Below are positions 2,613 to 53,174 of a DNA stretch of 60,472 bases, in pieces; within the stretch, counting starts at the first letter, position 1; each line of letters starts with the position of its first letter. The notes beneath the pieces are model-generated. The model was not told where the DNA came from. It saw nothing but the letters and a program-made list of their open reading frames with translations, and did not search any database. The position numbers were made by a program, and so were the translations under genes. Source of the DNA: a virus (taxonomy: Duplodnaviria > Caudoviricetes); the IMG/VR virus record IMGVR_UViG_3300026519_000014, positions 1-60,472 of that record. One strand, 5' to 3'.

Positions 2613-2630
2613 TTTATTATTTTTATTAAT

Positions 2631-6008: not shown

Positions 6009-6033
6009 AGACACTATTTATATTTTTGAAGAT

Positions 6034-6063
6034 AAACCCTGGCTGTTTAGTTGGGGTTTTTTA
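6034..6063 (+). terminator. Intrinsic terminator after the cargo gene
   Basis: AAACCCTGGCT-gttt-AGTTGGGGTTT followed by a T run. Confidence 0.7.
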
Positions 6064-6065
6064 AT

Positions 6066-6099
6066 AAAAAATCCCTAAGTTTTTTGCAAAATTTAGGGA
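6066..6099 (-). terminator. Intrinsic terminator closing the candidate ncRNA
   Basis: Minus strand TCCCTAAATTTT-gcaa-AAAACTTAGGGA-TTTTTT. Confidence 0.7.
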
Positions 6100-6530
6100 G
6101 TTGTGCTACTTTTATAATTCTGGTTATAACAGTTACCACAAAGGCAAATCTACAAAGAGCCTATTGTTTAAACAAACTGAGAGCTTAAAACTTTTTGATA
6201 AAATACTAAAAAGTCCCTTATTGTTCTTAAGCTACCTTAAAAGGCTGAAATCTTAACATAGTAGTAGCGTTGTTATAAGAAGTATAGGCAACAAGTATTT
6301 ACTAACAAGAATATTCACTTATTTAAGCAAAACCCAGGCTCTATCCAACCTGATAACCTGGTGGGTGAAGTATGAACCAGAATATTCTTCTTTAAACCAT
6401 TGAAATAGCTTAAATGCCACCAATCATTTAAGTGAGAGCTTAACAGGGCAGGTTCTATCCTAAGTTAAGTGTTAGTAAGGCTTCTTCCTCTTTGAGTTCA
6501 TTTCACCCAATAGTGGCTATTGGTATCTCT
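6066..6530 (-). ncRNA. Candidate large structured ncRNA (~470 nt), antisense to the late operon
   Basis: 636-bp gap with no ORF in the track, nested long-range complementary segments, and a minus-strand terminator at 6066-6099. Confidence 0.6.
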
Positions 6531-6644
6531 AATTTTGTAATTATCTAAATTTAGGTTACCTTTAAATTGTGGTTTAAAGGAAGTATGGGCATTTTATAGT
6601 AAGTATTATGTGTTTACTTATATTCTAAATTAAAAATTAAAAAT

Positions 6645-17600: not shown

Positions 17601-20600
17601 TATCTATGGAGTTATTCCTAATAATAGGCTATGGAATCAATCCAGATATTTTCCTTATACAGATAAAGCAATTAATGATGTAGTAAAAACTATTATTGAT
17701 ATAAGCAATATTAGAGAATTTGATGAATATCAAAATGTTTCTATAGAAAGTAGAATATTTAATGCTATAAAAAGTTATTATTTTAGTAATCTTGGTGAAT
17801 TAGGGTTTGTAGATACTTCACTACAAAAAGACACCGGTAGATTAGTAAGATATAATTTACTTTCTGAAGAAGGTGTTCTTCAAAATATAATTGCAAAATA
17901 TAGTAATACTTCTTTGTTTATAAATAATCCTTTTTTAAATAAGCTTTCTATTAGAAAAAGGAAAGCTGGAACTCCAGGAAGTATTAATTTTTCTTCAAGA
18001 GATACAGATGTTGTAAGTAAACATAATATTTATGGAGGATTAATAAAACTGCTAAATTCTACTAAAGAACTTCCTGAGCAGATACAGATTAATAATGATA
18101 AAGTTAAACTTATCACTGAACAAGATTTAGCTAGAGCTTTAATAGTTTCTCAATATGCTACAGGAGGTATACAAAAATACACACAATTTTTAAGATATAT
18201 CCCATTAGATTATTTGAAAAAAATAGGATTTACAGAATCTGCTAGAAACTTAGACTTTGCAAAACTTCTTAATGAAGGTAGAGGTAATAATAAATTTCAA
18301 CTTCCCTATATGGTTATTCAATTTTTTCAGCATAATCCCTATTTACTTAATACCCCAGAAGTAAGTATAAGAGAATTTGTAACTAAAGATGCTGAAAAGG
18401 AAGAAGATATAACTAGATTTTCTGTTCCACTACCTTTAAATAAAGCAAAAATAGAAGACCCCACTCTATTAGACCCTATGGTTAAGTTAAAAGGAGAAAA
18501 TAAAGACCATGTTTTTCTTTTTGATGGGAATGAATATATAAGACTAGATAATCTGGGAAGTGTAGATTTTAATGAATATCAAAGTAAAGAAATAACCAGA
18601 AGTGTTATTTATAACAATATAGCAAAAGATAAAAAAGGGGTACCGGTATCTTATTATGATCAAGTAGCAGCTAATACCCCTAAAAAACCTATCATTAATA
18701 AGGCTGATCAACTAAACCACATCACATTAGACCAAAAATATGGTTTTAATGAGGCTGAGCCAACTATCTCTAAAACCTTAATGGCTATATCCAATAATGG
18801 CCCTACTGCTCACAGAGCTCTTGCAGAAGATTATTTGCAAGTGTTTAAAGACGGAGAATACAAATTAGTAATAGATAGAAACTTACCTGCTAAAGGAAGA
18901 CACATAAGAAGTGAAAAAACTGTATTTATTAATCCTGATTTACTAACAGGGGATGAGGATTATAGCAAAACTTTTTTACATGAGGTTACACATATGCTTA
19001 CAGTAGAAGTACTAGAAAATCCTGTTACAGAACAACAAAAGAAAGCCAAAGCAAGTTTAACAAGATTATTAAATGCTTACAGAAAAACTCTCAAATCAGG
19101 AGAACTGGAGTTAGTAAAGAAACAAGTTTCAGAAGCTAAAGAAAAAGGCGTTTCTCCTAAACTAACTGAAGAACAACTTGTAAGAGTATATCCTGCTATT
19201 AATTTAAAAGAATTTGTAGCTGGTTTTATGACTGATGTCAAAGTTCAAAATCATTTAAATAAAGTAGATTTTAATGAAAATACTACTTATGGACAAGAAT
19301 ATGAAAAAAGACTGTTAAAGATTTTAAATTCTATAAAAGGTTTTGAATTAACTTCTACTTCTGCTCAAGCTATAAGAGAAGTAATTGCTTTAATAGATTA
19401 TCAAGATGAAGTTAAATTAAATCCAGTAGTTTTAGCTAAAATGGAAAATTCTACTTCTAATAGTGTAGATGCAAACTCCAGAGTTAGAAAAAAATCTATT
19501 AAACATACTGAAGAAGATGTAGGCATAAAAAGTTCTATAGCACAGGCAGAGGCTAATTTCTTAGAAGACAATTATGAAAATATGATAACTTCTGCTATAA
19601 ATAAAGCTGTGGATAGAATGGCTCCTATTGATGAAAATAATATTCCGCCAGAACCCACTACTTTTGAAGATTTACCAGCAGCCACTAAAAAAGAAAAAGA
19701 CGAAGAAGCACCAATATCAGATTTAGTCCATCCTTCTATTAAAAATAAACAGGCTATTTTAAAAGCTTTAAATAAAAAAGTTAATAGGGACAAAAAAAGG
19801 ATGCATGATTCTACTGATCCTAAAGTAGGAGTTTATTATGAGAATAGAATAATAAGAACTAAAGAAAAAATAGCTGAAATAGAAGAACAAATTGCTGCTA
19901 TTACAGGAATGAATACTTATTCCACTACTTTAAAGATAGCTGAAGAAGATTTATCTTATGTAGATACTTTAGTTAGTAGTGATATAAGGCTTATTACTTC
20001 AGAAGATATGGAAATAGTGGATAGTATTATTACACTATGGAAAAATTTTAAAAAAGAAGAATTTGTTGAAAAAATTTATAGTTCTTTAGACACTGAAAAA
20101 GATTTTAACAATATAAAAAATAAAGCCGAATCTTTAGAGGATAAGTTACATGATATAGCTATAGAAAAGACCAAATCTTTTATTAAAAGAGAGTTGCCTA
20201 AAGCTACTTCTGAAGATATTAAAAATCTAATGGCTATATCTGATGATATAGGAGTAGCTTCTTCTTATATATATGACCTTTCGAGGGTAGATAATGTAAT
20301 AGCTCAAGCTATGTCCAAATCTATTTTAAGAACTAATGACTATATAACTGAAGAAGTTACTAAAGTAGCAGAAGAAATAGACCCTATTTTACAAAATGCT
20401 GAAAAAGCGTTAAAAAAGCTGGGTCTTACTTTTGATGTTTTTATGCAAAAAGATGAAAAAGATAGATATACTGGTAGAATAATAATGCCATACTCCCAGA
20501 AATTTTTTAATTTGCTTAAAGCTAATTCTGAAAAAGCCTTTAGCCCAGAGGCTAGTAAAGAAGATAGACAAGCATATAGAGAATGGAGAAAACTTACTCA

Positions 20601-23001
20601 AATAACAATAAATCCTTCTAAATTGGAAGATAAAAAATATGTTGAAACTCTAATTAAAGAGGTAGGAAATGAAAATATAGAATATATTAAAAAACAAGCT
20701 ATTAGAAGGCAGGAATACTATAATAAAGCTTTAGAAAGAGAGCAAATAAGAATAGATACTAATCCTGACTTATCTAAAGAAGAGAAGAAACAAGCTATTA
20801 AAAAATGGGCAGAAGAAAATAAATTTAAATATCAAATATCTATCCCAAGAAAAATAAATACCAGAGGAGAACCTACTGGGTTTTATGATAGCAAGTTTGA
20901 AATAATTCAAAATAACCCAGACTTAAAAGTATTTCATGAATATACAATAGATTTACTTTCTAAATTAGGTAAATATTCTACTAACAAAAGAACCCCTGTA
21001 AATAGTATTCCTTTAATGCAAAAGGAGTTTTGGGAGGCGGCTAAAGGGAAAGACAGTCAAGGTATTTTTAACCTTATGGCTGATGCCATGAAAAAAGGGT
21101 TGAGGGCTAAAGGTGCTTATGAAGATTATATTACAGAAATAACTTCTGGAAAAAGAACCCTTTCTAATAATTTTAATGAAGTTACTAAAAGACAGTTGGC
21201 TGATAGATTAGTAGTTAAAGAATTACAGTATAAGCAGAAAACAAATAAAAACCCTACTAAAACACAAATTAAAGAATGGAAAGCTGATATTATGGATGAG
21301 CTTACTAAAGAAAGCTCTTTAGACATTGGTAAAATATTAAAAACTTATGCTGCCACCGCTATTGCCTATAAGCATAAAAGTCAAGTAGAAACACCTTTAA
21401 GAATAGCTGAAAAATTATTAAAAGAAGTAAAAGCTGCTGAAAGAAGTTCTTCTGGAGCTATTATTAATGACTTGGTAAATAAAGGTATAGATGAACAAGG
21501 GCTTATCAATATTAATAACATGGTTACCAGTACTTTAAATCATTGGTTTGGTGTTAAAAAGCCTGAAAAAATAAACAAAAAAAGTAAAGTAAAATATACT
21601 TCCGAAGAGAAAAAAACCAAAATTAAATTAGATAAAATAATAGCTACAGCTAAGGAGAATATTGAAAAATTAAACAAAAGCTTAAAAAATGCTTCTATAA
21701 CAGAAGATAGATATATAAAAAAGATAGCTGTAGAACAAAATGCTATAGATACTGCTCAAAAACAATTAGATAAACTAGGAGGTGTGATTTCTAAAGAACG
21801 TATCTTTAAAGGTACCATGAGATATATGCAACTTTTAGGTATGGGTTGGAATGCTGTAGCTGGAATAGCTAATTTAGGTTTTGGGCTTATTTCAAATACT
21901 AATGAGGGAATAGGAGGAGAATACTATACTACAAAAGAATTTTTTAATGCTCTTGGGGATGTTATAAAAGGGACTTTATTTGGTATAAAAACTGAAGATG
22001 GTAAAAAACAATCTATTCTTATGAAAAGATGGGGAATCTTACAAAAATCTTCACAAGAAACTTTCAAAAGAAAAACAGCAACCAATAAGTTACTTAATTT
22101 TTTAAATCCTTATAAGATTCAAGATACTACTGAGTATCTTAATCAAGCTCCTATAATGGTATTAATGCAGAAAAAAACTCCTGTATTAGATTCTAAAGGA
22201 GAGCCTGTAGTAATAAATGGAACTAAAATAAATTTTTATAATGCTTATGATAAAGATGGAAATTGGAAAACAGGTATTTTAGGAGAAGAAAAAAACTATC
22301 AAAAACAGAAGGACGACCTTAGAATACTTATAGGAGATTTAATAGCCAGAAATCATGGTAATTATAATAATGAGGGCAGACATTTAATGGTGAAAGATAG
22401 TTTAATAGGGCAATCATTAACTCAATTTAGGACTTGGATGTTAGAGGGCATAGGAAACAGATTTAGAGAGGAGTATTTTGATAGAATTACAGGAACTATT
22501 AAAAAAGGTAGATATGTGACTATTTATGAAGATTGGGAGAGAGCAGCTAAATTATTATATAGTGCTAAAACATGGAAAGAGTTATCTATTGTAGATAGAG
22601 CTAATGTAAGAAAAACATTAGCAGATATAGGAATGCTATTATCTTTTATGGGGTTTGTTACTTTACTTAAAGGTGCAGCAGAAGATGAAGACGATGAAGA
22701 TAAATTAGCAGTATTGCATTTACTTATTAATATTGGTTTAAGGATGCAAACAGATATAGCTTTTTATGTTAATCCAATGGAAGCTGAAAGACTTACTCAA
22801 TCTACTATTCCTGTAGCATCTTTAGTTTCCAGAGCTTCAGGATTAACGCAAGCTATGTATAAATATATAATGGACGAAGATGAAATAACTAATGGAATAT
22901 ATGCAGGGGAAAGCAATTTATTACATAAAGGATTTAACTCTATACCATTTGGAAAAGCTATATTACAAGTTCATAAAACAGCAACAAGACCATTCAGATA
23001 A
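8602..23001 (+). CDS. Giant virion-packaged DNA-dependent RNA polymerase polyprotein with a zincin protease domain
   Basis: 4799 aa. RIPNQG...GSDFDVDKLY catalytic loop (DFDVDK at 16300-16317) as in crAss-like/phi14:2-type RNAPs; HEVTH...NLKEFVA zincin motif (18979-18993); Gly/Ala-rich hydrophobic N-terminal region. Confidence 0.9.
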   Translation: MALTEEQVNAALNGEVKPASEASTEPKLTEEQVEAAMNSANILYGWGQGEQVNPDDFGFNLKTGDFDNFLYRAQDQGWGVQLGNAAARIVPNAALEIIGGVGSIFDFEDYLNQDNEVGNSLVRASNEGKEAINEAFPIYRERPGTSLDIGDSAWWFENGSGIVSSAAAFVGMGMGTGAVLSKGAQALQWVAKAGGMVRTAVRIRKASKLIIPGLNTLALNQAEGMLTATEIYDETLKRGIKQGLSQDEAKRIAAASASHSINVNRANILLNATSVAAITKGVNKGVTRQILKKEAMGRAVALESAQEYAEEVINLYAEKEGKRKADFDLLGKYYETKPTTWAERLSNTVFSIEGLEAGILGAVGGAAQTGFTHAGRNIAINGKSKNAELNERIQQQQSFISNLDGVLKSQGTKNFTTNSAGLDELRKSVEERNNLLALAEEYTKKGEEVPSKLATKILISGDAILTDQALANFQQGTTEYLESWYKDVQKATVEEAVAMGYTGEQLNENSPVHYSKMAERALTKIKEFEKIYQQHYAYKGLGSIMANRIAAKATIESIKEANIELDKLKTEAEEFNKTLPLYGNEFRVLVEDFDRVSKTGTPKAKRYITQAKKKRGLQPYLKAVERQKNIIKELKNLEKEYKKLISDEYQNKLKKIEEEIEKKEIEKQEKAVVKAKEDKDLAEIQDDTEDQAEAVNVPEASVNTPIEETSPEVEGHRGYVGPIVEISEEEAEKQAILEEIIGEVKRSYEEEIKKEVGISETEQREEIAEENAKYIEDIQESRDIAEGKSFDVKDQTTIKNNIVAIDEKLSSQNKTDNKASSVAYLAETILSKENTEIDPIVFNYNEVNVGTPVTLRVDTSYTGNVYYKGNEVPWQGLKSSLTEQELLEKTPIVIMVGDKTIGYVHDTEWFTLYNIGKGALEKSETEPSLKEKKIAEEKLAEEKERNRAIRKSVLEKGSINTTISYRGNGIIPTIEQGTKPVSEALPGIKIAVIKKNTLSDYEDLNILNRETITNGERVKDGYTVAIVPVNKNEVGEEQYIAYPLLRQKLNTKAKSSIVKATTILMKSLYYPKAISSEETKIADTIKELIDVDIRTIEGFEKYLTLFTHNTYPEGSGNLSQFMLTQNENKYAINVTSKGSAGVSFGKGGKQITKTTKNVIIPQMFKSNPDTYIEGLENIVEHLYANINDALLDADVTIPVITEENKVETLFSGKYTEYVKTYGLHTNATYHEIGTEENPKRVYTIQSVISYDDSFSGFIPKSNQNETVAATEKPDIDKETVLKEPFEPSEKVKKAPPGLEFMDDFDFTHLEDKNKDIESEELFAPYTGKTVSDYIIEGIPAHTQNLLIDNIIFNVLNTVENDDLVLSRVQEALSYLTEVKFPMIKSESWKLKELVRLRLQNLTNTVIQNEEESLDSTENKDEARSVEEKDQAWGIDILTINPKDSLSSRLKQLFSFIPLVNKEDGTPLRTKEGLIVFAGFDKTYEIVMSELSTNFDKDTPAPRTFDSMMDTLLAAKDIYTFLPFVVDRLKKAPRQLKNEFMVNADKHYTVMHHVWKKQTSDGKFYYNVLNDNANSRTLIIEQTWRNNNLQVSRISNNLLANGEVVEELKAEFDKWITKDKQIEDKKVLKWLSDMGITINQKTLDSFKEEDIYGLSYVKHFTTKEGIFKNIREALNSIKDGNELLETTLYRMSAFSRLAAQEGLNNSMYIPDSFRSGDSNIYGYQEQKWAVKRTSDLKYDEEELTRLAKNPITKNISWLKKLGKLDPSTGKFVIDKESRFYKNFSFGYVGLAALQEEGKFYANKKKLSELSSSAHEEVKKGFFENRALADKFGNRVVRFFFPTMSDKSTMFTLKVEPIKIAYDINGKLTKETIDALYDTILIPEINRMVNHIEGETNIKNYDQGAMMFYSVPELNNIPEIWNGTGSTRRLNLKVGRKGIEGDTVKKIIRENFEKHLNNLVEEQLKDWESLGLYNADTHVFRAGSEYKEYLDGLVYGEIGSSEREFNKAKLAAADFALNYMAANANFQVLYAGDAAQYYVGEPTFKENIKTEEGEFKKGDKIPVNHSLYYTTIAKNTFINIGKRLTLLAGPRRSPVFIEGKTTYRQGFVEDKRTASLAIDYISSIYEDNPEFIEKYKNIVGTDAVELITVSEKIEILYRDGKLDNTDYKRLLEIAKKGGDFSSSDLGKLKVFQADKPLYAGKAVEPNSLVERRIYIKSAAITLIPQFTRGLEIDKLRVLMENKKNPVNRIAFSSAVKVGNVKNPLNIWNEDGSIKENLSFSEDQILTLNRNEHGIQQDIPYKEKDSIKRVVQASKLSFVNLLNRDILVDSKKIKGRELYERFQKNWESLYSLAKEEFFEELEVDVSKDVWIPNSKKLSRYIKREAELRNLSLQDLEGLELREDGTFELPLWANGANKQFEALLNSLITNKILEQSIPGKAYVLASEEGFQKQVKTIEDVLEEQNIKDIESSGIVFTEFWNGKSLMPSIEGSNNQVFIPWPFKDVPMEHYIKDGKIDMSRIDADLFTMYGMRIPNQGPNSTGNLEIAGFLPEVMGDIIIAPRDFVTQMGSDFDVDKLYTYRYNYIVTDNGDIRRIKEEYLNPEKLKLRLSKAEKRLNEIILLDLKKDRQREKNLLYIQIEKLNKLLEPNALAKLKFQDDIVKIHRLLNADPSNFVQRQIKAPLGEGRLKEYSDIIENSKDSSFFSPYSSIYQRNKFKNASSGNKAIGVFAIANTFNASAQTVEGPLKIVDGDKDLYVRFGNQVSYGVLNNELALDNKTYISENISNYLSVAVDNEKIQALHNLNINDVTYGIVNLLTQLGFTHDVISSFLGQDILFELVKKVEEFQDKGESSISALNKAFSVLEKDSKYSEKVFDALDEDNKNKILKKYADSSSAFLFEVIKKGEDHPDYKITQKAILKKFKFLSKKAVSLQNLQRITNIDSSGIGKNLIESKVKEEAFVEALTDKNIIGASKLFGEISYTPLKGYQQFGNIYFKPTSISGFAVIYGVIPNNRLWNQSRYFPYTDKAINDVVKTIIDISNIREFDEYQNVSIESRIFNAIKSYYFSNLGELGFVDTSLQKDTGRLVRYNLLSEEGVLQNIIAKYSNTSLFINNPFLNKLSIRKRKAGTPGSINFSSRDTDVVSKHNIYGGLIKLLNSTKELPEQIQINNDKVKLITEQDLARALIVSQYATGGIQKYTQFLRYIPLDYLKKIGFTESARNLDFAKLLNEGRGNNKFQLPYMVIQFFQHNPYLLNTPEVSIREFVTKDAEKEEDITRFSVPLPLNKAKIEDPTLLDPMVKLKGENKDHVFLFDGNEYIRLDNLGSVDFNEYQSKEITRSVIYNNIAKDKKGVPVSYYDQVAANTPKKPIINKADQLNHITLDQKYGFNEAEPTISKTLMAISNNGPTAHRALAEDYLQVFKDGEYKLVIDRNLPAKGRHIRSEKTVFINPDLLTGDEDYSKTFLHEVTHMLTVEVLENPVTEQQKKAKASLTRLLNAYRKTLKSGELELVKKQVSEAKEKGVSPKLTEEQLVRVYPAINLKEFVAGFMTDVKVQNHLNKVDFNENTTYGQEYEKRLLKILNSIKGFELTSTSAQAIREVIALIDYQDEVKLNPVVLAKMENSTSNSVDANSRVRKKSIKHTEEDVGIKSSIAQAEANFLEDNYENMITSAINKAVDRMAPIDENNIPPEPTTFEDLPAATKKEKDEEAPISDLVHPSIKNKQAILKALNKKVNRDKKRMHDSTDPKVGVYYENRIIRTKEKIAEIEEQIAAITGMNTYSTTLKIAEEDLSYVDTLVSSDIRLITSEDMEIVDSIITLWKNFKKEEFVEKIYSSLDTEKDFNNIKNKAESLEDKLHDIAIEKTKSFIKRELPKATSEDIKNLMAISDDIGVASSYIYDLSRVDNVIAQAMSKSILRTNDYITEEVTKVAEEIDPILQNAEKALKKLGLTFDVFMQKDEKDRYTGRIIMPYSQKFFNLLKANSEKAFSPEASKEDRQAYREWRKLTQITINPSKLEDKKYVETLIKEVGNENIEYIKKQAIRRQEYYNKALEREQIRIDTNPDLSKEEKKQAIKKWAEENKFKYQISIPRKINTRGEPTGFYDSKFEIIQNNPDLKVFHEYTIDLLSKLGKYSTNKRTPVNSIPLMQKEFWEAAKGKDSQGIFNLMADAMKKGLRAKGAYEDYITEITSGKRTLSNNFNEVTKRQLADRLVVKELQYKQKTNKNPTKTQIKEWKADIMDELTKESSLDIGKILKTYAATAIAYKHKSQVETPLRIAEKLLKEVKAAERSSSGAIINDLVNKGIDEQGLININNMVTSTLNHWFGVKKPEKINKKSKVKYTSEEKKTKIKLDKIIATAKENIEKLNKSLKNASITEDRYIKKIAVEQNAIDTAQKQLDKLGGVISKERIFKGTMRYMQLLGMGWNAVAGIANLGFGLISNTNEGIGGEYYTTKEFFNALGDVIKGTLFGIKTEDGKKQSILMKRWGILQKSSQETFKRKTATNKLLNFLNPYKIQDTTEYLNQAPIMVLMQKKTPVLDSKGEPVVINGTKINFYNAYDKDGNWKTGILGEEKNYQKQKDDLRILIGDLIARNHGNYNNEGRHLMVKDSLIGQSLTQFRTWMLEGIGNRFREEYFDRITGTIKKGRYVTIYEDWERAAKLLYSAKTWKELSIVDRANVRKTLADIGMLLSFMGFVTLLKGAAEDEDDEDKLAVLHLLINIGLRMQTDIAFYVNPMEAERLTQSTIPVASLVSRASGLTQAMYKYIMDEDEITNGIYAGESNLLHKGFNSIPFGKAILQVHKTATRPFR

Positions 23002-33398: not shown

Positions 33399-33411
33399 AA
33401 TATTTTAACTT

Positions 33412-33440
33412 AAAAAAGGGCTGCTATAATAGCAGCCCTT
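33412..33440 (-). terminator. Intrinsic terminator between the Ubl and E2 genes
   Basis: AAGGGCTGCTA-tta-TAGCAGCCCTT-TTTT on the minus strand. Confidence 0.85.
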
Positions 33441-33471
33441 AACTAACTTACATATAACTAAAACCTATTTT

Positions 33472-39246: not shown

Positions 39247-39267
39247 GATAATTTCTTTTTCTTGGTC

Positions 39268-39298
39268 AAAAAAGCCTTCTGGGTTATCCAGAAGGCTA
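39268..39298 (-). terminator. Intrinsic terminator
   Basis: AGCCTTCTGG-ataac-CCAGAAGGCT-TTTTT on the minus strand. Confidence 0.75.
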
Positions 39299-39320
39299 TA
39301 AAATTGTTTTCATACTTACT

Positions 39321-43842: not shown

Positions 43843-45969
43843 TTATTTAGTCCAATAAGGTTGTACATCTACATCTGCTTTTAATTCTAAAAAACCATCC
43901 ATATATTTAGCTGCTACTCTTTCCATAAGTTCTCTTGCTCTTTCTGGAAACCAAGTAAGTTCAGTTTTAAACATAAAAACAATTTCATCATGTATTGTTA
44001 ACATTATAAAAGCATCTATTTTATATAAATTAATCCATTTATCAACAGTTACAATAGCTTCCATAACCATATCTGCTTGGGAAGATTGTATTTTTGTATT
44101 TCTGGCTTGACTTTCAGTATCCCTTTTAACCATAAAAGAAGGTTCCCTGTGTGCTTTGTTGGCTGCTAAAATATCAGGAAACCATCTTCTGCTATTAGTT
44201 CTGGTATTATTTATAATGTAGCCTTTACTAAGAGCAAATTTTGAAGCGGTTTCTACCATAGATATGGTTTTGGGTATTTCAGAAGTAATAGTTTTAATAG
44301 CTATTCCCCCTTCTTTACTTGTTATATTAAGGGTTTGAGCAGCTTTCTTATCTCTAAGACCATATACTACACCAAATAACATAGGTTTATAGGCAGTTCT
44401 TTTTTCTTTATGGTTAGATTTAGAGATAATATCTTCCTCTTTCCAGTCTAATCCTCTGTTATTATAAATAGCTTTCCATCCTTTATTAGCAAAATAACTA
44501 TGCATATCTTGTTTAGATAATTCTATTAATCTATCATCTTTAGCAAGAGCTGCCATAAAACATAATTCAGCTCCAGCATAATCTATAGTTGCAATAGAAT
44601 AACCTTCATCTGCTAAAAAACAATGTCTAAAAGTATTGTTTGCAGGTATTTGTTGGCTATTGTATAATCCTTCTTTAGCATTGCCGGAAGTCAGTCTTCC
44701 TGTAGCTGCGTTTTGTCTATAAGAAGTATGTACTCTATTTGTTATTGAATTAAGGTATTTTTCTACCCAGTTTTTACCAAAAGAATTAACTAAATGCAGT
44801 TTATTCTTAAACTCATGAAATAGTTGCATAAGCTCTTCCCATTTATGCCCTTTATTTTCAAGTAGCCAACTATCTCTTGCAGCATGACTTACAGAGGGTT
44901 GTATAAGGTGTGTAGTAGAAGATTTAGCTTGTGGTAAAGGGTCTATTCCTAATTGAGTAAAGGTCTCTAATACTTGCTTAGAACTACTCCAATTAATGCC
45001 TATATTGTTATCAAAAGAAATAAGATTATAGTTTACTAATTCTGTTTCAGCTTTTTTTAAAAGATTTAGATTAGTTTGGTAAGACTTAAGATGAGTTTTA
45101 CCCATAGTTTCTTGTATGGAGATAGTTTTTTTTAGCTTTTTTATTCTTTCCTCACTTCTTTTAATTCCTTTATCTTTTTTTTCTTTTTCTTTAGCAAAAT
45201 CAGCATTGATTTCTTGCCAATTTACTATTGGCATCACTATGTTATTTAGTTTTTGTATAAGTTGTTTACATTCTTCTTCTATTTTAGAAGCATTTTCTAA
45301 CCACTTATCAGCATCTAACTTAAATCCTTTTAGTTTTATTTTGGCTAAAATTAAACTTAAGGGGTTATGAATACTTTTAATAAAGAAATTAAGTTTAAAA
45401 GTGTTTATATTTTGTTGTTGTTTTTCTTTTAAAGCAGGAAGGGCTAAAACATCTGCTGCTGAATAAATAATATGTTGTTCCTGAAGTTGAAAATCTTCTT
45501 GGGTAAAATCTATTCTTAAATTTTTATCCATGCCTTCTGGCAGAGGAATATCTCTCCTTTCTAAGGTATGTTTTAAAGCTGTAGAATAATTACTTCCTTG
45601 AAGTAGCTTAGCTTCAGTTACCATTGTATCCCAGGTTCTTTTAATATAGATTTCTTTTAATGCTAAAAAGCTATATTCAAATTGAGAATTATGGCATATT
45701 ATTAGTTTTTTATCTAGATTAAGCTCTTTTAAAATAGCTATGTCTATTGATTGTAGATCAATAACTAAAACCCAGTTATAGAGAGGGTTATAAAGAGAGA
45801 TAAGTAGTATTTTACCTGTCCAGGGATTTAGTGAAGTAGTTTCAATATCCAGATAAATTTCATCTACTTTATTAAAAGCAGCAATAGCATAGTGTATATT
45901 TTTTAAACCTAAGATATTTACTTTATTGAATGTTAAATTCTTTCTTTCTGTAATAAATATATAATTCAT
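43843..45969 (-). CDS. polA: Family A DNA polymerase with a 3'-5' exonuclease domain
   Basis: Exo motifs DIET, HNSQFE, YSAADV; ATGRLTS; motif A DYAGAEL; motif B RTAYKPMLFGVVYG; motif C IHDE. Confidence 0.95.
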   Translation of the reverse strand: MNYIFITERKNLTFNKVNILGLKNIHYAIAAFNKVDEIYLDIETTSLNPWTGKILLISLYNPLYNWVLVIDLQSIDIAILKELNLDKKLIICHNSQFEYSFLALKEIYIKRTWDTMVTEAKLLQGSNYSTALKHTLERRDIPLPEGMDKNLRIDFTQEDFQLQEQHIIYSAADVLALPALKEKQQQNINTFKLNFFIKSIHNPLSLILAKIKLKGFKLDADKWLENASKIEEECKQLIQKLNNIVMPIVNWQEINADFAKEKEKKDKGIKRSEERIKKLKKTISIQETMGKTHLKSYQTNLNLLKKAETELVNYNLISFDNNIGINWSSSKQVLETFTQLGIDPLPQAKSSTTHLIQPSVSHAARDSWLLENKGHKWEELMQLFHEFKNKLHLVNSFGKNWVEKYLNSITNRVHTSYRQNAATGRLTSGNAKEGLYNSQQIPANNTFRHCFLADEGYSIATIDYAGAELCFMAALAKDDRLIELSKQDMHSYFANKGWKAIYNNRGLDWKEEDIISKSNHKEKRTAYKPMLFGVVYGLRDKKAAQTLNITSKEGGIAIKTITSEIPKTISMVETASKFALSKGYIINNTRTNSRRWFPDILAANKAHREPSFMVKRDTESQARNTKIQSSQADMVMEAIVTVDKWINLYKIDAFIMLTIHDEIVFMFKTELTWFPERARELMERVAAKYMDGFLELKADVDVQPYWTK

Positions 45970-46039
45970 TTCAAATGGTTTAAAAGTAGATAAAATAGGA
46001 AATAAGCGTTATCCCTTATCTCCCTAAACTATGGAAATA

Positions 46040-46324
46040 TTATAATTCTAATTTAAGAATTGATAATTTAGTAATAATATCAGACAACATTTTCATTTTA
46101 ATTTTATTTGTCTGTAAGTTTTCTTTTCTAAAACTATCTACTGCTGTTTGAAAAGCTTCAGGATAAGTTTTTTTAAGCAGTTTAATTGTCATAGGTAAAG
46201 GTTCATCATCTCCTGCAAATATCTTTTCTATTTTTTTCTGGTTTTTTCTAAAGATTTCAAATTCTTCTTGAAGTATTTCAATAATATAATTTATTTCTTT
46301 TTCTGTTAGTTTTTCTTCTTGCAT
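46040..46324 (-). CDS. Hypothetical protein
   Basis: Likely start MQEEK; the longer start in the track runs through a terminator. Confidence 0.65.
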   Translation of the reverse strand: MQEEKLTEKEINYIIEILQEEFEIFRKNQKKIEKIFAGDDEPLPMTIKLLKKTYPEAFQTAVDSFRKENLQTNKIKMKMLSDIITKLSILKLEL

Positions 46325-46349
46325 AGTTATAAAATTATAAAATTTAATT

Positions 46350-46385
46350 AAAAAGCCCCCCAGAAAGCTATTCCTGGAGGGCTTT
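46350..46385 (-). terminator. Intrinsic terminator
   Basis: AAAGCCCTCCAGGA-atagct-TTCTGGGGGGCTTT-TT on the minus strand. Confidence 0.8.
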
Positions 46386-47136
46386 CCCTTACTATCCCCT
46401 GCACTTTGCAAGGGATTAAAGGATTAAATAAAAACAAAGGCTTTAATGGATTCCTTGATATAATCTGAAGGTATAACGTAGTTTCCTACTTCCAAACTAG
46501 ATTAGTGGGGGCCAGCACCATCTCCTGTTCTGTTTTATAAAGCCTTTGTACCTAATTAGCATACTTCTATGTTTTACTATTACCCTACAATAGGATATAA
46601 TAGTCTAATCAGGATTAGTATTTTAAAAAAATGGTTGTAGTTTATAGTGGAAACATTACCCTTCGATAACTTCAATCATCACTAAACCTCTTCAGGTTGC
46701 CTAGCTATCCTAACACTAAAGGCTTTAACGGATGTTTTAAGTGTTTTTGCATTTCTGCCCAACCATCTTTTATATTTTTAAATAGGTTTGGGAAGGAAGC
46801 CAGAATCTTACAACTGGTATACAGATTTTTAATTTACCACACCTCCCCTAAACACTATTACTTCTATAATATCTGTCTTTCCAGATTGTCATACTTTGTC
46901 AATATCAATCTTTAAAAATTACCTGTGCCTCTAAGAGCAATGTTAATGTTAGCTGGATTAAAGATTTTTTCTTCTCCTCAATTTAAAGGGCTTTCCCTTA
47001 CTTTTTAACACCTTTCAATAGACTAATCATCTTAGACTGATTAATAATAACACAACTCCTGATGATAACAAAGGTTATCCCTTTGGGAATAAGTTGTCTA
47101 CTGATATTATTTGTCTATCTTCAGACAGGTAATTTT
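46350..47136 (-). ncRNA. Candidate large structured ncRNA (~790 nt)
   Basis: No credible ORF; two perfect 12-bp long-range stems, two 16-nt internal direct repeats, many hairpins; bounded by terminators on both sides. Confidence 0.6.
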
Positions 47137-47163
47137 ATATTTTAAAATATTGTAAGATGTCTT

Positions 47164-47192
47164 AAAAAGGGCTACAACTTTTTGTAACCCTT
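47164..47192 (-). terminator. Intrinsic terminator
   Basis: AAGGGTTACAA-aaag-TTGTAGCCCTT-TTT on the minus strand. Confidence 0.75.
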
Positions 47193-47262
47193 ACCAGTAG
47201 GAATTAAGAAAAGCTTTCGGGGACAGTTCTTCTACTGGATTTTTAGCTAATGAAAGTTAGTG

Positions 47263-47526
47263 CTAAAATAATTCTTTTTGCAATTCTTCAATAGCTTTTA
47301 AACCTCTTTTATAGGCTTCAACTTCGTCTTGGGTCTTAAGAATATTTTCTACCCGCAATGGGTATGAATTTTTTAGATTTTCTAAATGCAATTCTACCTC
47401 TGCCAATTTGGATTGGGTTTCCAATAAATCCCCTGAAAGTTGTAATTTTGCTAATTCCACTTGTTTTTTTAATTGGTTGTCCTCCAGTTCTTGTGGGCTT
47501 TGTTTGAGCCTGGCTAAATACTTCAT
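47263..47526 (-). CDS. Coiled-coil hypothetical protein
   Basis: 87 aa with an A-rich leader; overlapped by the tail of the upstream ORF. Confidence 0.7.
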   Translation of the reverse strand: MKYLARLKQSPQELEDNQLKKQVELAKLQLSGDLLETQSKLAEVELHLENLKNSYPLRVENILKTQDEVEAYKRGLKAIEELQKELF

Positions 47527-48418
47527 TTGTAGTTTGTTTATTGTTTAAAATTGATTTAAATTCTTGTAAAGTGTAAATTGGAATAGTTGTTCTATTAGTT
47601 TTTACAAAACATATATACTCCCCTTCTCTAACACCATAAAAGGAGACTTTAAAACTATCTCCCCTCCATCCAACATTATATTTTATATAATGTTTTATAC
47701 ATAATTCTATATATTCATTAAATTCTTTTTTAGATTTTAAATTTAGATAGAAATTATTTTTATCAAATGATAGATGACTTTTATTTGGGGTTAATGGGTA
47801 TTTAATAGGTTCATGCCATTCAGTAGCAAAAGTTTTAACTTTTAATTCTGCTCTGATAGCATCTAAATTAGTAAGATGATATGTATTAATCATATTAGTT
47901 ATATTTTTACTGCTATACATTATAATTTTATCTTTAGAGATAACTAAGTAAGGTTTGTCAATAAAAGAAATAACTTTACCTTTATTATTCCAACTATATC
48001 CTAATTGAAATAATACATTTTGTATTTCTTCAGAATGAGCTTTATCTTCTACTTTAAAATATTTAGGCCAGTTATCTTCTTCAACCAATTCTATCATATC
48101 TTCTAAAAAGTATACTAGTTGTTCTGAAGTATATACATATTGGTTATTATAGCAATTAAATTTAATACTTTGTATTCTGTGTATTGTATTAAGAAAAGGT
48201 GTGCCTATACCATAATCCAGTTTGATTACCTTTACTTTATCTCCTACTTTAAATTTAGGTAGCATTGTTGCTCCTTCATTATACCATACTTCTTCTTTTG
48301 GAGTAGCTTTTCTCCAACACAGAGAAATTAATGAGCTTGATGAATTGTATAGTTCCCCTACTATATTTTTTCCAATATAAGGCCCCCTATCATATTTTTT
48401 TACTCTTGTGTGTATCAT
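47336..48418 (-). CDS. Mosaic hypothetical protein (FKVGDKVKV SH3-like module plus others)
   Basis: 360-aa ORF built from short phage modules. Confidence 0.65.
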   Translation of the reverse strand: MIHTRVKKYDRGPYIGKNIVGELYNSSSSLISLCWRKATPKEEVWYNEGATMLPKFKVGDKVKVIKLDYGIGTPFLNTIHRIQSIKFNCYNNQYVYTSEQLVYFLEDMIELVEEDNWPKYFKVEDKAHSEEIQNVLFQLGYSWNNKGKVISFIDKPYLVISKDKIIMYSSKNITNMINTYHLTNLDAIRAELKVKTFATEWHEPIKYPLTPNKSHLSFDKNNFYLNLKSKKEFNEYIELCIKHYIKYNVGWRGDSFKVSFYGVREGEYICFVKTNRTTIPIYTLQEFKSILNNKQTTNEVFSQAQTKPTRTGGQPIKKTSGISKITTFRGFIGNPIQIGRGRIAFRKSKKFIPIAGRKYS

Positions 48419-48752: not shown

Positions 48753-49283
48753 TTATTTATAATTGTTATAGGAATTAGGATAAATATGTTGATAGGCCTC
48801 AGCAAATTTTGTAGTATTGATTGTTATCACAAGTTCTTTATCTTCTTCTAAACTAATGATAAATTTAAGCTCTTTTTCTGCTAAAAGCATATTTACAATT
48901 ATATTTGCATAATCATCCGGATTAGAATACATAATATAGTTTTCTTTGTAATTTACTTTTGGCCTTTTTTCTTTGATATAATAAATTTCTTTATTTATAT
49001 CTTTGAATTTTATTAGTGTGCTGTATTTAGGAGCTTCTACTTTTTTGGTAAACCTGTTATAAACTTTTATTTTTATACTATAATTATCTATAATAAAGAT
49101 AATATGAGCATATTTTTCTGTGTTTACATCAGTTATATAAAGTAGATGAGGAGATGAGTAAATAGGGTCCTCAAATTCATCTACATAATAAACTGTGTTC
49201 CAGGTGTTTATATTGAAATTTGATTTTTGGCTATAACTAAGTGTAGTTATAAACAATAAGGCAATAAGAATTAAATTTTTCAT
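48753..49283 (-). CDS. Exported protein with a Bacteroidota-type signal peptide
   Basis: MKNLILIALLFITTLSYS|Q, then YYVDEFED. Confidence 0.7.
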   Translation of the reverse strand: MKNLILIALLFITTLSYSQKSNFNINTWNTVYYVDEFEDPIYSSPHLLYITDVNTEKYAHIIFIIDNYSIKIKVYNRFTKKVEAPKYSTLIKFKDINKEIYYIKEKRPKVNYKENYIMYSNPDDYANIIVNMLLAEKELKFIISLEEDKELVITINTTKFAEAYQHIYPNSYNNYK

Positions 49284-49316
49284 GATTTTATAAATTTTAG
49301 ATTGTTTTTAAATTTT

Positions 49317-49347
49317 AAAAAAAGAGCTACTTAATTGTAGCTCTTTT
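49317..49347. terminator. Intrinsic terminator
   Basis: AAAAGAGCTAC-ttaatt-GTAGCTCTTTT. Confidence 0.8.
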
Positions 49348-49458
49348 AATATTATGAGTATTAATAGTCTAGTTTTTTAAGTTCATTGTCCAACTTAAAA
49401 TAACTAGTTAATACTACTCCTAATAATAGGAGCAGTATTACTATTGTGATTGACATTG

Positions 49459-49950
49459 TTAGGCCTCTGTTTCTTCAGGAACTTCATCCATTTTAATATC
49501 CTGATTTTCAGGGGCTACAAATGAATCTTCAGGCAACTGATGTCCCGCCCTTCTGAAAGCAGCTAAAATATTGTTGTGGAAAAGTTCTTTGTCAGTGTCG
49601 TCACCAAATACTGCTGTAGTATATGATGAAGCTGTAACTTCATCTCCTTCTGCATTGATGAAAGAATATTCTTCCACTGATTTGGAGATGATTTTTCCTG
49701 GGATTAAGGTACCTACAGGAGCATTGTAAGCTGGGTCTTTGCTTCCATCTAAATATGATTCTTCATATTGATTGAAGCTGACCTCCCTTGCTGTAAGATC
49801 AATTACAGGATTAATTTCTCCTGTTACAGGGTCAATCCTTGTTCCTGCCAAAGGCTTGACAGAAATTCTTTTGTAATTTCTGCCGTTTTTGTCTACCGCT
49901 ACTTCACTAACTTTAGTTACTTGTAGCATTGAGCTTTCTTGATTTTCCAT
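49459..49950 (-). CDS. Putative single-stranded DNA-binding protein
   Basis: Beta-rich body (DKNGRNYKRISV) and an acidic C-tail; has its own structured leader and terminator. Confidence 0.45.
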   Translation of the reverse strand: MENQESSMLQVTKVSEVAVDKNGRNYKRISVKPLAGTRIDPVTGEINPVIDLTAREVSFNQYEESYLDGSKDPAYNAPVGTLIPGKIISKSVEEYSFINAEGDEVTASSYTTAVFGDDTDKELFHNNILAAFRRAGHQLPEDSFVAPENQDIKMDEVPEETEA

Positions 49951-50193
49951 TTTTCAATTTGTTTTTGTTAATTAAATTTTTCAGATTTTCTGAAGTTTGT
50001 TATTACTTCTACTTCTTAGGTTATTAAAAGTTTATAGATTTTAGAGTTTTGCTAATTTAGTTGTAGCCTGAGTTAATCTTATAAACTTGTTTAATCTTTA
50101 AAATATAGGTAATAGTTCTATCCTTGCTATTGAAAGCAACAGCATACTGAGTTCAACTAAGTTGTAACTTGGTATCTGGATAGAAAATAGTTT

Positions 50194-50222
50194 AAAAAGG
50201 GGAAGATATTTCTATCTTCCCC
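50194..50222 (-). terminator. Intrinsic terminator
   Basis: GGGGAAGATA-gaaa-TATCTTCCCC-TTTTT on the minus strand. Confidence 0.8.
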
Positions 50223-50252
50223 ATAAACTATGAAATGGTAGTAAGTTACCAG

Positions 50253-51254
50253 CTATTTTTTCCATTCTCCAAATTTTGGTGCTCCCATATAACTTTTGGG
50301 AACTGTGGAAATTTTTTTAAATTTCGGATTAAATTTGTTTATTGGAATGTAGTTTAATCCTACCAGATAACAAAGGTCTTCTAAATCCCTGAGAAAATTG
50401 TTATTGGTGAGCATATTATCAGATTCCTTGTTTACTGCTTCAAAGAATCTTTCTGCGTGCTTTTGTTTTTTGAATTGGAAACTTAAATTTCCATATAGAG
50501 GAACATATCTTGTTATTTCCTCTTTTTGTTTTTCTTCTATATAAGAATACATATCTATCTGTATTCTTTTTGCTAATAGAATTTTTGGGTTTTCTGTTTT
50601 TTCGATTTTCATAATTTTAGTTGTTAGTGTGAAATTAAGGAAAGGTATATTATTACCAGTAATAGTATTGTCAGGTAATAAAGGAATCCTGGCATTTCTT
50701 TACCATTTACTGAATAGCCATAACTTCCTCTTTCATTTATGTAAATAAAGACTAAAAGTGAGGCTACAAATAAAAATATGAGTGCTAAAATCATGATTCC
50801 CAGGATGAAGATGAAGTAAGTATTGTTATTATAGCTAAAATAGCTATAAATAAAGCTAAGAGCAAATAAGGAAGTAAAGCTGGTATTAATGCTAATGTTC
50901 CTAAGATATATAAGGATTTACTTTTTAGTTTAAGCCCTAATCCTAATAGACCTAATCCTGAGAATATTAATATTGCTAAAATAGTATTTGTCATAGTTTT
51001 GGGATTCTAGGTGTTTTGTAAGTATTTACAGGAGGGTTTAAATAGTCCTCCTTGATGGTTAGGAGCTCTTGTGTGAGCTTATCTATTTCTTGGTGATACT
51101 TGGTATCAGAAATAATTCCCATGTCTTTAAAAGCTTCTAAAGCAGCTAATTTATTGGCTAAAGAATTTAACCTGGCTTTAAGCTCAACTTCTCTTAGATT
51201 AATTATACCGTTGTTTTCTAAGATGGCTTTTCTAAGTAATTGATGTACATTCAT
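50253..51254 (-). CDS. Four small early genes (50253-50612; 50624-50794 membrane, not in track; 50791-50994 membrane; 50991-51254)
   Basis: Coupled ATGA overlaps; two are strongly hydrophobic. Confidence 0.6.
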
Positions 51255-51354
51255 AGTTTTAAAAGATTTTAAGATGTAGTAATTTTAGTTTTTAGGAAAG
51301 TAATTAATGATGTAATTTGATTTACCCTAAAATGTGGAGTTTTAATGAAAGAAA

Positions 51355-51443
51355 AATATTATGTTAAATAGGAATAGAGTTGAGAGAGAACTGATTATCA
51401 GCTACTTAGCTACTCAATTTACTCCTCTATTTAACATAATATT
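51355..51443. repeat. 17-bp perfect inverted repeat containing XerD/dif half-sites
   Basis: AATATTATGTTAAATAG (51355-51371) and CTATTTAACATAATATT (51427-51443); TTATGTTAAAT is the XerD arm of dif. Confidence 0.75.
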
Positions 51444-51495
51444 AATTTAATCTAACCATAATAGTAGTATAAATACTAATTATAGCTAACAATCA

Positions 51496-52149: not shown

Positions 52150-52284
52150 GGGGGATATCCCCCACCAACCAGGATTAAGTGGGGGTTTTTATGGGGGTAC
52201 CCCCTCATTTAGAACACTTTTATAATTTCTCAAATTTTTAACAAAATTTTTTTCTGTTCTCTACTATTTAGAACACTTTTATAA
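52150..52284. promoter_or_regulatory. G/C palindromes and a 19-bp direct repeat upstream of the early region
   Basis: GGGGGATATCCCCC 52150-52163; GGGGGTACCCCC 52193-52204; ATTTAGAACACTTTTATAA at 52207-52225 and 52266-52284. Confidence 0.6.
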
Positions 52285-52696
52285 CTTTCTAAAGCAGGGA
52301 AAGGGGGGATAGCTATAAAGAAAGGGAAAACCAGATATAAGATGGAGTTTTGATTTTCAGAAATATAAAAATTTTTTAAGGTGGGGGATAATAAGTTCAA
52401 CTATATTTTATGAAGGGTGATAAGTAGTAAATCACCTTTTTTCTTTATAGAAGGTCTATAACCTACCTTTATTGTTATTTTCATTATAGCTGCTTGAAAT
52501 TTACAAAAGCAACCATAGGTGTTTTTCATTAGGGGGTAAGGTATTTTTATTATAGCCTTAACTGGAGATTTAGATAGGTGGGAGTTAATGATGGAAGCTG
52601 GGGTAGCCATAGGGAAGAAACGCATTACTTATATTTTTCTTTTTTTTAATTGTTTCCTTATTTCTCCTTCTTCTTTAATAGGGTTACGGCTATTAA

Positions 52697-52753
52697 ACAT
52701 TATAGCTACTGTAAGGTCTTAATTAAGACATTATAGCTACTGTAAAGTCTTAA
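52697..52753. repeat. Iteron-like 26-bp tandem repeat with a central palindrome
   Basis: ACATTATAGCTACTGTAARGTCTTAA at 52697-52722 and 52728-52753; GTCTTAATTAAGAC at 52716-52729. Confidence 0.8.
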
Positions 52754-52754
52754 A

Positions 52755-53174
52755 CTATTTATTAAGCCCTTTTTTAATATCTGAAAGGAGTACTTGACTT
52801 AGTTTTTCCATTACTCCATAGGGGTTTGCATCTACTATCCAATGAGTTCCTTTTCTTAAATATTCTTTTTTTAGATAGCCTTGTTTAACAAGTAATGTCC
52901 AGGCTCTATTGAATCTTTGTATTCCCATTCCTGCTTGTCTATGAACTTTATTTTCTTCTTTTAAAACAAAGTGATTTTGGATTATAGATTTATGAATAAT
53001 ATAATCTGTTCCTGAGTATGAATAGATTTTCCAAAATATAGCAAAAGTTTCTGGAAAAGCTAAAAGAGCTTTATCATTAATAATATGATCTGGAAGAGAA
53101 GTAAAGGGATTCTTAGTTTCCTGATAAGTATCTGGAAGATAAGAGGTTTTATTATTGCTTTTAAATTCTTTCAT
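52755..53174 (-). CDS. Winged-helix DNA-binding protein resembling the N-domain of phage replication initiators
   Basis: NPFTSLPDHIINDKAL...MGIQRFNRAWTLLVKQGYL. Confidence 0.6.
   Translation of the reverse strand: MKEFKSNNKTSYLPDTYQETKNPFTSLPDHIINDKALLAFPETFAIFWKIYSYSGTDYIIHKSIIQNHFVLKEENKVHRQAGMGIQRFNRAWTLLVKQGYLKKEYLRKGTHWIVDANPYGVMEKLSQVLLSDIKKGLNK

Follow-up and report, generated by a model that had tools for sequence, protein, structure and literature searches.

A terminator-bounded non-coding stretch ahead of the polymerase gene in a crAss-like phage: a candidate minus-strand transcription unit

The DNA analysed here (the window) is an entire viral contig of 60,472 nt, with a GC content of 0.30 and an estimated completeness of 63%. 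Between 23 and 52 kb, all annotated open reading frames (ORFs) of at least 80 aa lie on the minus strand. In the direction of that strand, a series of small genes without family matches (52-47.3 kb) gives way to a stretch without genes, followed by a 94-aa ORF and by the gene for a family-A polymerase (PolA); beyond PolA lie helicases, a Sak4-like annealing protein and a primase. The ORFs that flank the stretch are separate, and each has its own stop and its own start. The coordinates of these features, and of the elements described below, are collected in Table 1.

What kind of phage is this? Among named phages, the best matches of PolA are crAss-like, at 23-30% identity. A plus-strand ORF of 4799 aa (8602-23001) matches the crAss-type virion protein family phrog_16227 (E 1.5e-98) and has the sequence DFDVD at residue 2567; the catalytic motif of the virion RNA polymerase of crAss-like phages is given as DFDxD in the available text on these enzymes. 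The 4799-aa protein appears to be such a virion RNA polymerase, placed inside an unusually large protein.

Table 1. Features in and around the non-coding stretch (positions in the window)
Feature	Position	Strand	Remarks
PolA, family-A polymerase	43843-45969	-	whole; exonuclease and polymerase domains
94-aa ORF	46040-46324	-	downstream of the stretch; PolA is next
T2 terminator	46387-46350	-	from consensus scan; 17 pairs, 7 of them G-C
Candidate non-coding RNA body	46391-47163	-	~770 nt; no ORF, no codon signal
Hairpin F	46392-46430	-	predicted; abuts T2; z -3.5; 3' foot within the 16-nt repeat
Domain E	46434-46549	-	predicted; 116 nt; perfect 12-bp helix ACAAAGGCUUUA/UAAAGCCUUUGU, then a U-rich run
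Hairpin D	46550-46626	-	predicted branched stem-loop; z -2.7 minus, -1.1 plus
Domain C	46627-46772	-	predicted; 146 nt; closing helix includes ATGGTTG/CAACCAT; 23-nt repeat copy 46711-46733
Domain A	46915-47136	-	predicted; 222 nt; closed by a perfect 12-bp helix
T1 terminator	~47194-47164	-	hairpin GGGUUACAA/UUGUAGCCC, then UUUUU; from sequence and fold
87-aa coiled-coil-like ORF	47263-47526	-	final coding sequence upstream of the stretch
360-aa ORF	47336-48418	-	junk-like tail overlaps the 87-aa ORF

At its C-terminal end, the 360-aa ORF has ~60 residues (47336-47544, minus strand) with the look of out-of-frame junk, and the 87-aa ORF occupies this region in another frame. Either there are two genes here, of which the first has been mis-extended, or the overlap is a frameshift site.

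The only public run listed as holding the stretch is a DNA run labelled hydrothermal vent metagenome, and there are no RNA runs among the listed holders. In a second assembly of this run, positions 45000-47725 are present on one contig with 0 differences, which argues against a misassembly; the run is possibly the sample from which the window itself came, and thus the second assembly is not independent.

The interval from 46325 to 47262 is non-coding. The original prediction had seen no credible ORF between 46350 and 47136, and this holds. The longest ORFs under translation table 11 are 72 aa on the plus strand and 31 aa on the minus strand, and the longest frame from stop to stop is 81 aa, which by our own estimate is about what is expected for random AT-rich sequence of equal length. 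A codon-usage log-likelihood, for which 18 long genes from the window served as the training set, was scored in 150-nt windows, taking the best frame; it lies between -0.34 and -0.03 in every window of 46375-47274, while coding windows have a mean of 0.31 and a 5th percentile of 0.14. The score turns positive from ~47200 upward, on the side of the 87-aa ORF. By this measure the stretch is the longest low-coding run of the window, at 950 nt. Alternative genetic codes do not rescue it: reading TAG as glutamine gives a minus-strand frame of at most 86 aa with four recoded stops, table 4 opens no credible frame, and the frames that appear under table 6, on either strand, each include 3-22 recoded stops, as is expected by chance in AT-rich DNA. 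All three codes were rejected. Finally, a six-frame tblastn search with X at stops found 0 matches in the related loci and one in the window, at E 0.86; a decayed gene with protein-level similarity to the loci or the window was rejected on these grounds.

The base composition of the stretch also differs from that of its surroundings. The GC content of the body is 0.323 (0.323-0.328 for the stretch), compared with 0.223-0.286 in 10 other gaps of the minus-strand gene block and 0.289 in the block overall. Another low-coding interval of the window by the codon scan lies at 6009-6644, where 636 nt without an ORF of at least 60 aa separate two large structural genes on the plus strand.

Does the stretch belong to a known RNA family? 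Phages carry large RNAs such as GOLLD and ROOL, and the original prediction had proposed a member of this group or a new class. A scan of the whole window against Rfam gave 0 matches at the gathering score. When 45900-47600 was searched at E<=10, there were 13 matches, all far under threshold, and none to a large RNA, intron, ribozyme or tmRNA; membership of GOLLD or ROOL thus failed, neither model matching even at this permissive cut-off. The best of the weak matches fall on T2 (Phe_leader at 24.2 bits and His_leader at 23.9 bits, against thresholds of 49-55 bits). ARAGORN found 0 tRNA and 0 tmRNA genes over the 60 kb of the window. The tmRNA of the crAss-like Cellulophaga phage phi14:2, which served as a positive control, is detected by ARAGORN and by Rfam. 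Two specific candidates were rejected: a tmRNA, for which ARAGORN and Rfam RF00023 gave no match, and a group I or group II intron or self-cleaving ribozyme, for which there was no Rfam core match at E<=10 and the flanking ORFs are separate genes.

The stretch lies between two transcription terminators. T2 ends 25 nt ahead of the ATG of the 94-aa ORF at 46324; it has a z-score of -4.7 and pair probabilities of up to 1.0. T1 is the terminator of the upstream genes. It is absent from the consensus scan that lists T2, and is recognised from its sequence and fold; a second hairpin lies ahead of it (~47199-47239), and the segment that contains it (47137-47262) has z -3.4 on the minus strand and -1.8 on the plus strand. 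That terminators bound the region on both sides had been predicted, and this can now be refined, in that both are on the minus strand. Since T1 and T2 share this orientation with each other and with all neighbouring genes, any RNA from the stretch should be a minus-strand RNA of approximately 46350-47160.

In other parts of the phage, for example at 33.4, 39.3, and 49.3 kb, genes end in a terminator with the next ATG ~17-40 nt beyond it, and this is the usual layout between genes. By this pattern T2 closes a unit, here one without an ORF. The strong hairpins that stand 17-40 nt before starts (33399-33471, 39247-39300, and 49284-49340) are accompanied by no visible Shine-Dalgarno sequence, a pattern compatible with hosts that start translation independently of this signal.

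Downstream of T1, a promoter was not recognised. The count of sigma-70-like sites is 15, against 8.8 +/- 2.9 in shuffled sequences, and the consensus TAnnTTTG does not occur on the minus strand of 45900-47400. The available text of a study of crAss-like phages ascribes early transcription to the virion RNA polymerase, without a known promoter motif (10.1101/2020.03.07.982082). If a transcript were made by such a polymerase, the lack of a recognisable promoter would be expected.

The stretch is rich in repeated sequence. A repeat search recovered every stem and repeat of the original prediction, each in its place. A perfect 12-nt inverted repeat joins 46915-46926 and 47125-47136. Another inverted repeat extends over 21 nt at 81% identity (46425-46445 and 46538-46558), with a perfect 12-mer as its core (46434-45 and 46538-49). 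There is an exact 16-nt direct repeat (46378-46393 and 46987-47002) and a direct repeat of 23 nt at 83% (46429-46451 and 46711-46733), whose 16-nt core agrees at 15 of 16 positions; through this second family, 46538-47 has an alternative 10-nt partner at 46718-27. Tandem arrays are absent from the stretch, apart from two 8-nt units repeated twice (46327-46344 and 46413-46428).

The significance of the repeats depends on the comparison. Among 1000 dinucleotide shuffles of 46350-47136, the two 12-nt inverted-repeat words were matched in 16, the 16-nt direct repeat in 1, and the seven 10-nt inverted words in 5. Of 152 equally long windows from the phage itself, 10 contain a minimum of two 12-nt inverted words and 6 contain a 16-nt direct repeat. 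Thus, the repeats exceed those of shuffled sequence, and the stems are less special when set against the phage's own DNA. The motif ARGGCTTT has 19 matches in the 60-kb window, five of them inside 46378-46994; these five are not independent, because they are the two repeat families and their partner.

Folded as a minus-strand RNA, the stretch is predicted to form several domains (A, C, D, E, and F) one after another, each closed on its own, and not one compact ornate core. The closing helix of domain A has pair probabilities of 0.35-0.95, and the domain has z-scores of -3.2 on the minus strand and -2.9 on the plus strand. Within it, one copy of the 16-nt repeat forms a small predicted hairpin (46986-46999; pair probability 0.63-0.87). 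The ATGGTTG/CAACCAT pairing of 46631-37 with 46760-66, which had been read directly from the sequence, reappears in the closing helix of domain C at a probability of 0.93-0.95 on the minus-strand RNA. Domain E, which overlaps the copy of the 23-nt repeat at 46429-46451, closes with pair probabilities of 0.83-0.99. The z-scores of domains C and E (-1.6 and -1.4) are not significant. Towards the 3' end, the other copy of the 16-nt repeat runs from the base of hairpin F into the 5' arm of T2, and here the small hairpin has a predicted probability of 0.00. Given this position, a factor-dependent effect on termination just ahead of the polymerase operon is conceivable, as a speculation.

Where does the folding signal come from? 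The whole 916 nt has z -5.0 on the minus strand and -2.8 on the plus strand relative to shuffles. When the terminators are taken away (46432-47140), these values become -2.1 and -1.9. Among segments cut by hand, A, D, F, T1, and T2 have z-scores of -2.7 to -4.7, and B, C, and E of -1.2 to -1.6; the borders of the domains were set after the stems had been seen, so that the z-scores of domains are inflated. A fold scan over all 603 windows (200 nt each), with a correction for GC and G content, ranks the minus-strand windows with T2 and T1 5th, 6th, and 17th; five interior windows from 46401 to 47000 rank between 269 and 454, and 46901-47100 ranks 126. Shuffle z-scores in 200-nt windows have a mean of -1.27 for six interior windows and of -0.72 for 26 coding windows (sd 0.87). 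The strong folding signal therefore stems mostly from the two terminator ends, and the interior resembles the coding DNA of the phage. The minus strand has the lower z-score in all eight hand-cut segments; in arbitrary 200-nt windows it folds better in 4 of 6 from the region and in 15 of 26 coding ones.

These results do not sustain the ornate fold that had been proposed for the stretch, the interior scoring only -2.1 and -1.9 and its windows ranking 126-454 of 603. The same is true of the suggestion that the duplicated motifs form a switch: at equilibrium, the competing helix between 46727-18 and 46538-47 has a probability of 0.00, against 0.83-0.99 for the 12-bp helix. A switch that acts kinetically, during transcription, may nonetheless exist.

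Other sites in the window also fold well. The spacers 51255-51495, 49201-49500, and 50001-50300 of the same gene block have z-scores of -3.2 to -4.1 on both strands against a GC-corrected background. A long, near-perfect inverted repeat lies at ~51300-51440, and an ORF-free leader of ~270 nt follows a terminator at ~50230.

The search for homologues, which had been proposed as the way to collect sequences for a covariation test, came back empty in phage records, IMG/VR, JGI, ten relatives, and public runs. With blastn, there was no homologue of the stretch in 50,697 phage records. The loci used for closer comparison were 13 from IMG/VR, in which PolA is at most 44% identical, and 24 from JGI; the PolA relatives reach 65, 62, 60% and lower. 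These relatives include P0003-P0007, at 52-62% identity and one of them on a contig of 48,756 nt, and a PolA identical to that of the window is encoded on a contig of 88,332 nt. In the 13 IMG/VR loci the best blastn match had E 0.12 and nhmmer found none. A permissive blastn search of 45970-47600 against both sets gave only eight dispersed matches, 48-122 nt long and 65-77% identical (E 2e-4 to 5e-3). Their strands are mixed and most of them fall on T2 and the 94-aa ORF; they are read as chance matches of AT-rich sequence. The whole records of 10 relatives, including phi14:2 and three complete ones, contained only matches of 18-46 nt with E>=0.003, and a search of the window against itself found no useful match to the stretch. 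A covariance model built from the single sequence of domain A had 0 matches at E<=1 in the whole records of five relatives; in 27 sources besides itself it gave two 15-bit matches, which are noise.

Pattern scans were no more productive. In IMG/VR, a pattern from PolA alone had 72 matches and one from the 360-aa neighbour nine, with 0 relatives in either case, and a 21-mer from the stretch had 0 matches. The 16-nt repeat was found nine times, as single matches in unrelated contigs with a GC content of 0.26-0.54; four of these have an identical 19-mer and appear to represent a single family of prophages. An 18-mer, a poorly chosen pattern, had 105 matches in a scan of genome contigs, and among the 80 matches listed nearly all were in typically GC-rich taxa.

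The neighbourhood of the stretch is itself variable. In the nearest PolA relative (L015, 65% identity), the 1371 nt upstream of PolA are occupied by two ordinary genes and have no similarity to the stretch. Only one of 11 neighbouring proteins has relatives in the compared loci (p128, encoded downstream of PolA), and none of the six upstream does. The difference from L015 and the lack of relatives of the upstream neighbours place the stretch in a zone of fast turnover. Three complete relatives also have long low-coding runs, in which Rfam finds two tRNAs only, the scan of the third stopping 20 kb short of its end. The complete 95-kb relative G001 (locus L006) has an ORF-free gap of 829 nt (2417-3245) approximately 2.8 kb upstream of PolA; this holds a tRNA (2700-2784) and then ~460 nt of fairly GC-rich, unassigned sequence, and it has no similarity to the stretch.

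How can a stretch of this kind be explained? The reading that we prefer, tentatively, is that it is an orphan non-coding transcription unit of a crAss-like phage, from which a minus-strand RNA of ~0.8 kb is made that ends at T2. The RNA would start just downstream of T1 (~47160) and end at T2 (46350), and the unit would sit where the block of small genes meets the replication module (the 94-aa ORF, PolA, helicases, and primase). By analogy with the abundant early intergenic transcripts of phi14:2, its role would most likely be that of a phage long non-coding RNA. The reading draws on the clean drop in coding signal within a compact genome, the co-oriented terminators, the GC content, the strand bias in folding, the repeats, and the phi14:2 precedent; from these we infer that the stretch is transcribed as a unit of its own, that RNA rather than DNA is its functional form, and that it has a function at all. 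Against it weigh the empty homologue searches, the fast-turnover setting, an interior of ordinary folding, the limited strand bias in arbitrary windows, and the lack of a recognised promoter. Of the original interpretation, a non-coding, terminator-bounded phage element with more repeats than shuffled sequence has stood, and the link to GOLLD and ROOL, the ornate fold, and the switch have not.

The stretch could instead be a relic, either of one or two accessory genes in a hypervariable region, decayed beyond recognition, or of foreign DNA that recombination left behind, with T2 as an old terminator and with stems and repeats that have no function. This is somewhat unlikely. The wholly different region upstream of PolA in L015, six upstream neighbours without relatives, and the failure to find a homologue in any collection searched would all suit a relic, as would an interior that folds like coding DNA and comparable stems in 10 of 152 phage windows of the same size; the GC content, which is above that of the other spacers, would suit former coding or foreign DNA. 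However, no frame retains a codon bias and none of the six has protein similarity, the longest stop-free frame (81 aa) is close to our own estimate for random AT-rich sequence, and the exact 16-nt repeat arises in only 1 of 1000 shuffles. Moreover, phages rarely keep ~0.9 kb of dead DNA. A length of ~800 nt weighs against the idea of a long regulatory leader of the replication operon, in which transcription begins inside the stretch or passes T1 and a factor on the 16-nt motif permits read-through of a conditional T2, since known leaders are far shorter. T2 does stand immediately ahead of the 94-aa ORF and PolA, with no room recognised for a separate promoter; one copy of the motif lies across hairpin F and T2 and the other forms a hairpin of its own (0.63-0.87), and the best weak Rfam matches on T2 are to attenuator leaders, albeit far below their gathering scores. 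Yet terminators close to an ATG are common between ordinary genes of this phage, so that T2 needs no special role, the small hairpin has a probability of 0.00 at the T2 copy, and there is no match to a leader peptide, riboswitch, or known antiterminator family. A leader is distinctly unlikely.

Might the stretch act as DNA? A replication origin or a cluster of protein-binding sites, with RGGCTTT present four times in direct and once in inverted orientation, would be well placed next to the replication genes, and 46378-46994 contains five of the 19 matches to ARGGCTTT that the window has. These five are, however, not independent; there is no AT-rich block for unwinding in what is the GC-richest spacer of the minus-strand block, the cumulative GC skew does not turn here, and folding favours one strand. 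The divergent junction at ~52.2-52.8 kb, with its 31-nt tandem repeat, is more origin-like, and we consider a site of this type within the stretch improbable. At the junction (52200-52760), the tandem repeat is present in two copies (52692-52753) and the motif TTTAGAACACTTTTATAA is repeated at ~52210 and ~52267; it is a better candidate for an origin or regulatory region than the stretch. A large ornate RNA like GOLLD or ROOL but of a class of its own, perhaps multimerising by way of its repeated motifs, would be a stronger version of the transcription-unit reading, with which it is compatible, and it is just as improbable as a DNA-level site. In its favour are a comparable size, an origin in a phage, a unit with terminators at both ends, three long-range helices of high predicted probability, and the z-score of domain A (-3.2). 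On the other side stand the lack of an Rfam match or of a tRNA in the window, the ordinary stability of the interior, the inflation of domain z-scores by borders drawn post hoc, and a domain A covariance model that finds no significant match in relatives. A variant that is also very doubtful, though a little less so, is a modular structured RNA of ~0.8 kb specific to this lineage of deep-sea crAss-like phage and made from a transcription unit of its own, in which the two repeated motifs with RGGCTTT would bind proteins or mediate contacts between RNAs and so tie the RNA to the control of T2 and to polymerase expression.

What would follow if the preferred reading, an orphan transcription unit, were correct? 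A transcribed and functional RNA from the stretch would add a second example to that of phi14:2, with long non-coding RNAs then a regular trait of crAss-like phages, and would be the first such RNA to be placed directly ahead of replication genes; it would also offer a handle on the timing of expression in these phages. The lineage-specific structured RNA, if real, would represent a new class of regulatory RNA in phages, one without a relative in the current databases. As it stands, the stretch is a flagged candidate from a single sequence in one sample, and not a discovery.

The comparison with other systems begins within the phage itself. The other terminator-bounded spacers resemble the stretch in having a G+C-rich hairpin and a U-tract shortly ahead of an ATG. 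In those spacers the terminator follows a protein gene, whereas T2 is preceded by ~770 nt without coding signal. With GOLLD and ROOL, the stretch has in common that it is phage-encoded, several hundred nucleotides in length, and free of ORFs. The family models cover a conserved 3' region with its structure for GOLLD and a multi-pseudoknot structure for ROOL, and the formation of homo-oligomeric nanocages is a further mark of these RNAs. According to the available text of a recent study, these RNAs are often, but not always, found near tRNA islands in phages and prophages (10.1101/2024.12.08.627333). The stretch differs from them in having no neighbouring tRNA, no family of homologues, and no structure supported by covariation.

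The closest known analogue, in kind and not in sequence, is provided by the early long non-coding RNAs of phi14:2. In the available text of the transcriptomic study, two long intergenic regions in the early block of this phage are transcribed above most genes (10.1101/2020.03.07.982082); these regions, at the g004-g005 and g005-g006 junctions, persist through infection and are termed 'long non-coding RNAs' (10.1101/2020.03.07.982082). The corresponding interval of the RefSeq record (2905-4601) contains no current CDS. A tmRNA gene lies within the g005-g006 interval, at 4031-4500 on the plus strand (L153, NC_021806), with the tag peptide GSSVQKLAMVA according to ARAGORN and an Rfam RF00023 score of 46 bits, where the gathering score is 47 (E 2.6e-16). 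The interval is not called a tmRNA in the available text of that study (10.1101/2020.03.07.982082), and the record has no RNA feature there.

The sequences themselves are unrelated: the best blastn match between the stretch and 2905-4601 of phi14:2 is 20 nt long (E 0.034, the level of chance), and against the full phi14:2 record the lowest E is 0.04. A tmRNA is present in the second stretch of phi14:2 and absent from the one described here; the phi14:2 RNAs are, by the available text, known from RNA-seq, whereas the present stretch is known from DNA alone; and they lie near the start of the genome, while the stretch adjoins PolA. The likenesses are those of setting. Both phages are crAss-like and encode a giant virion protein with a DFDxD motif, both have ORF-free stretches of ~0.7 kb amid small genes and co-oriented with them, and the first stretch of phi14:2, like that of the window, matches no Rfam family.
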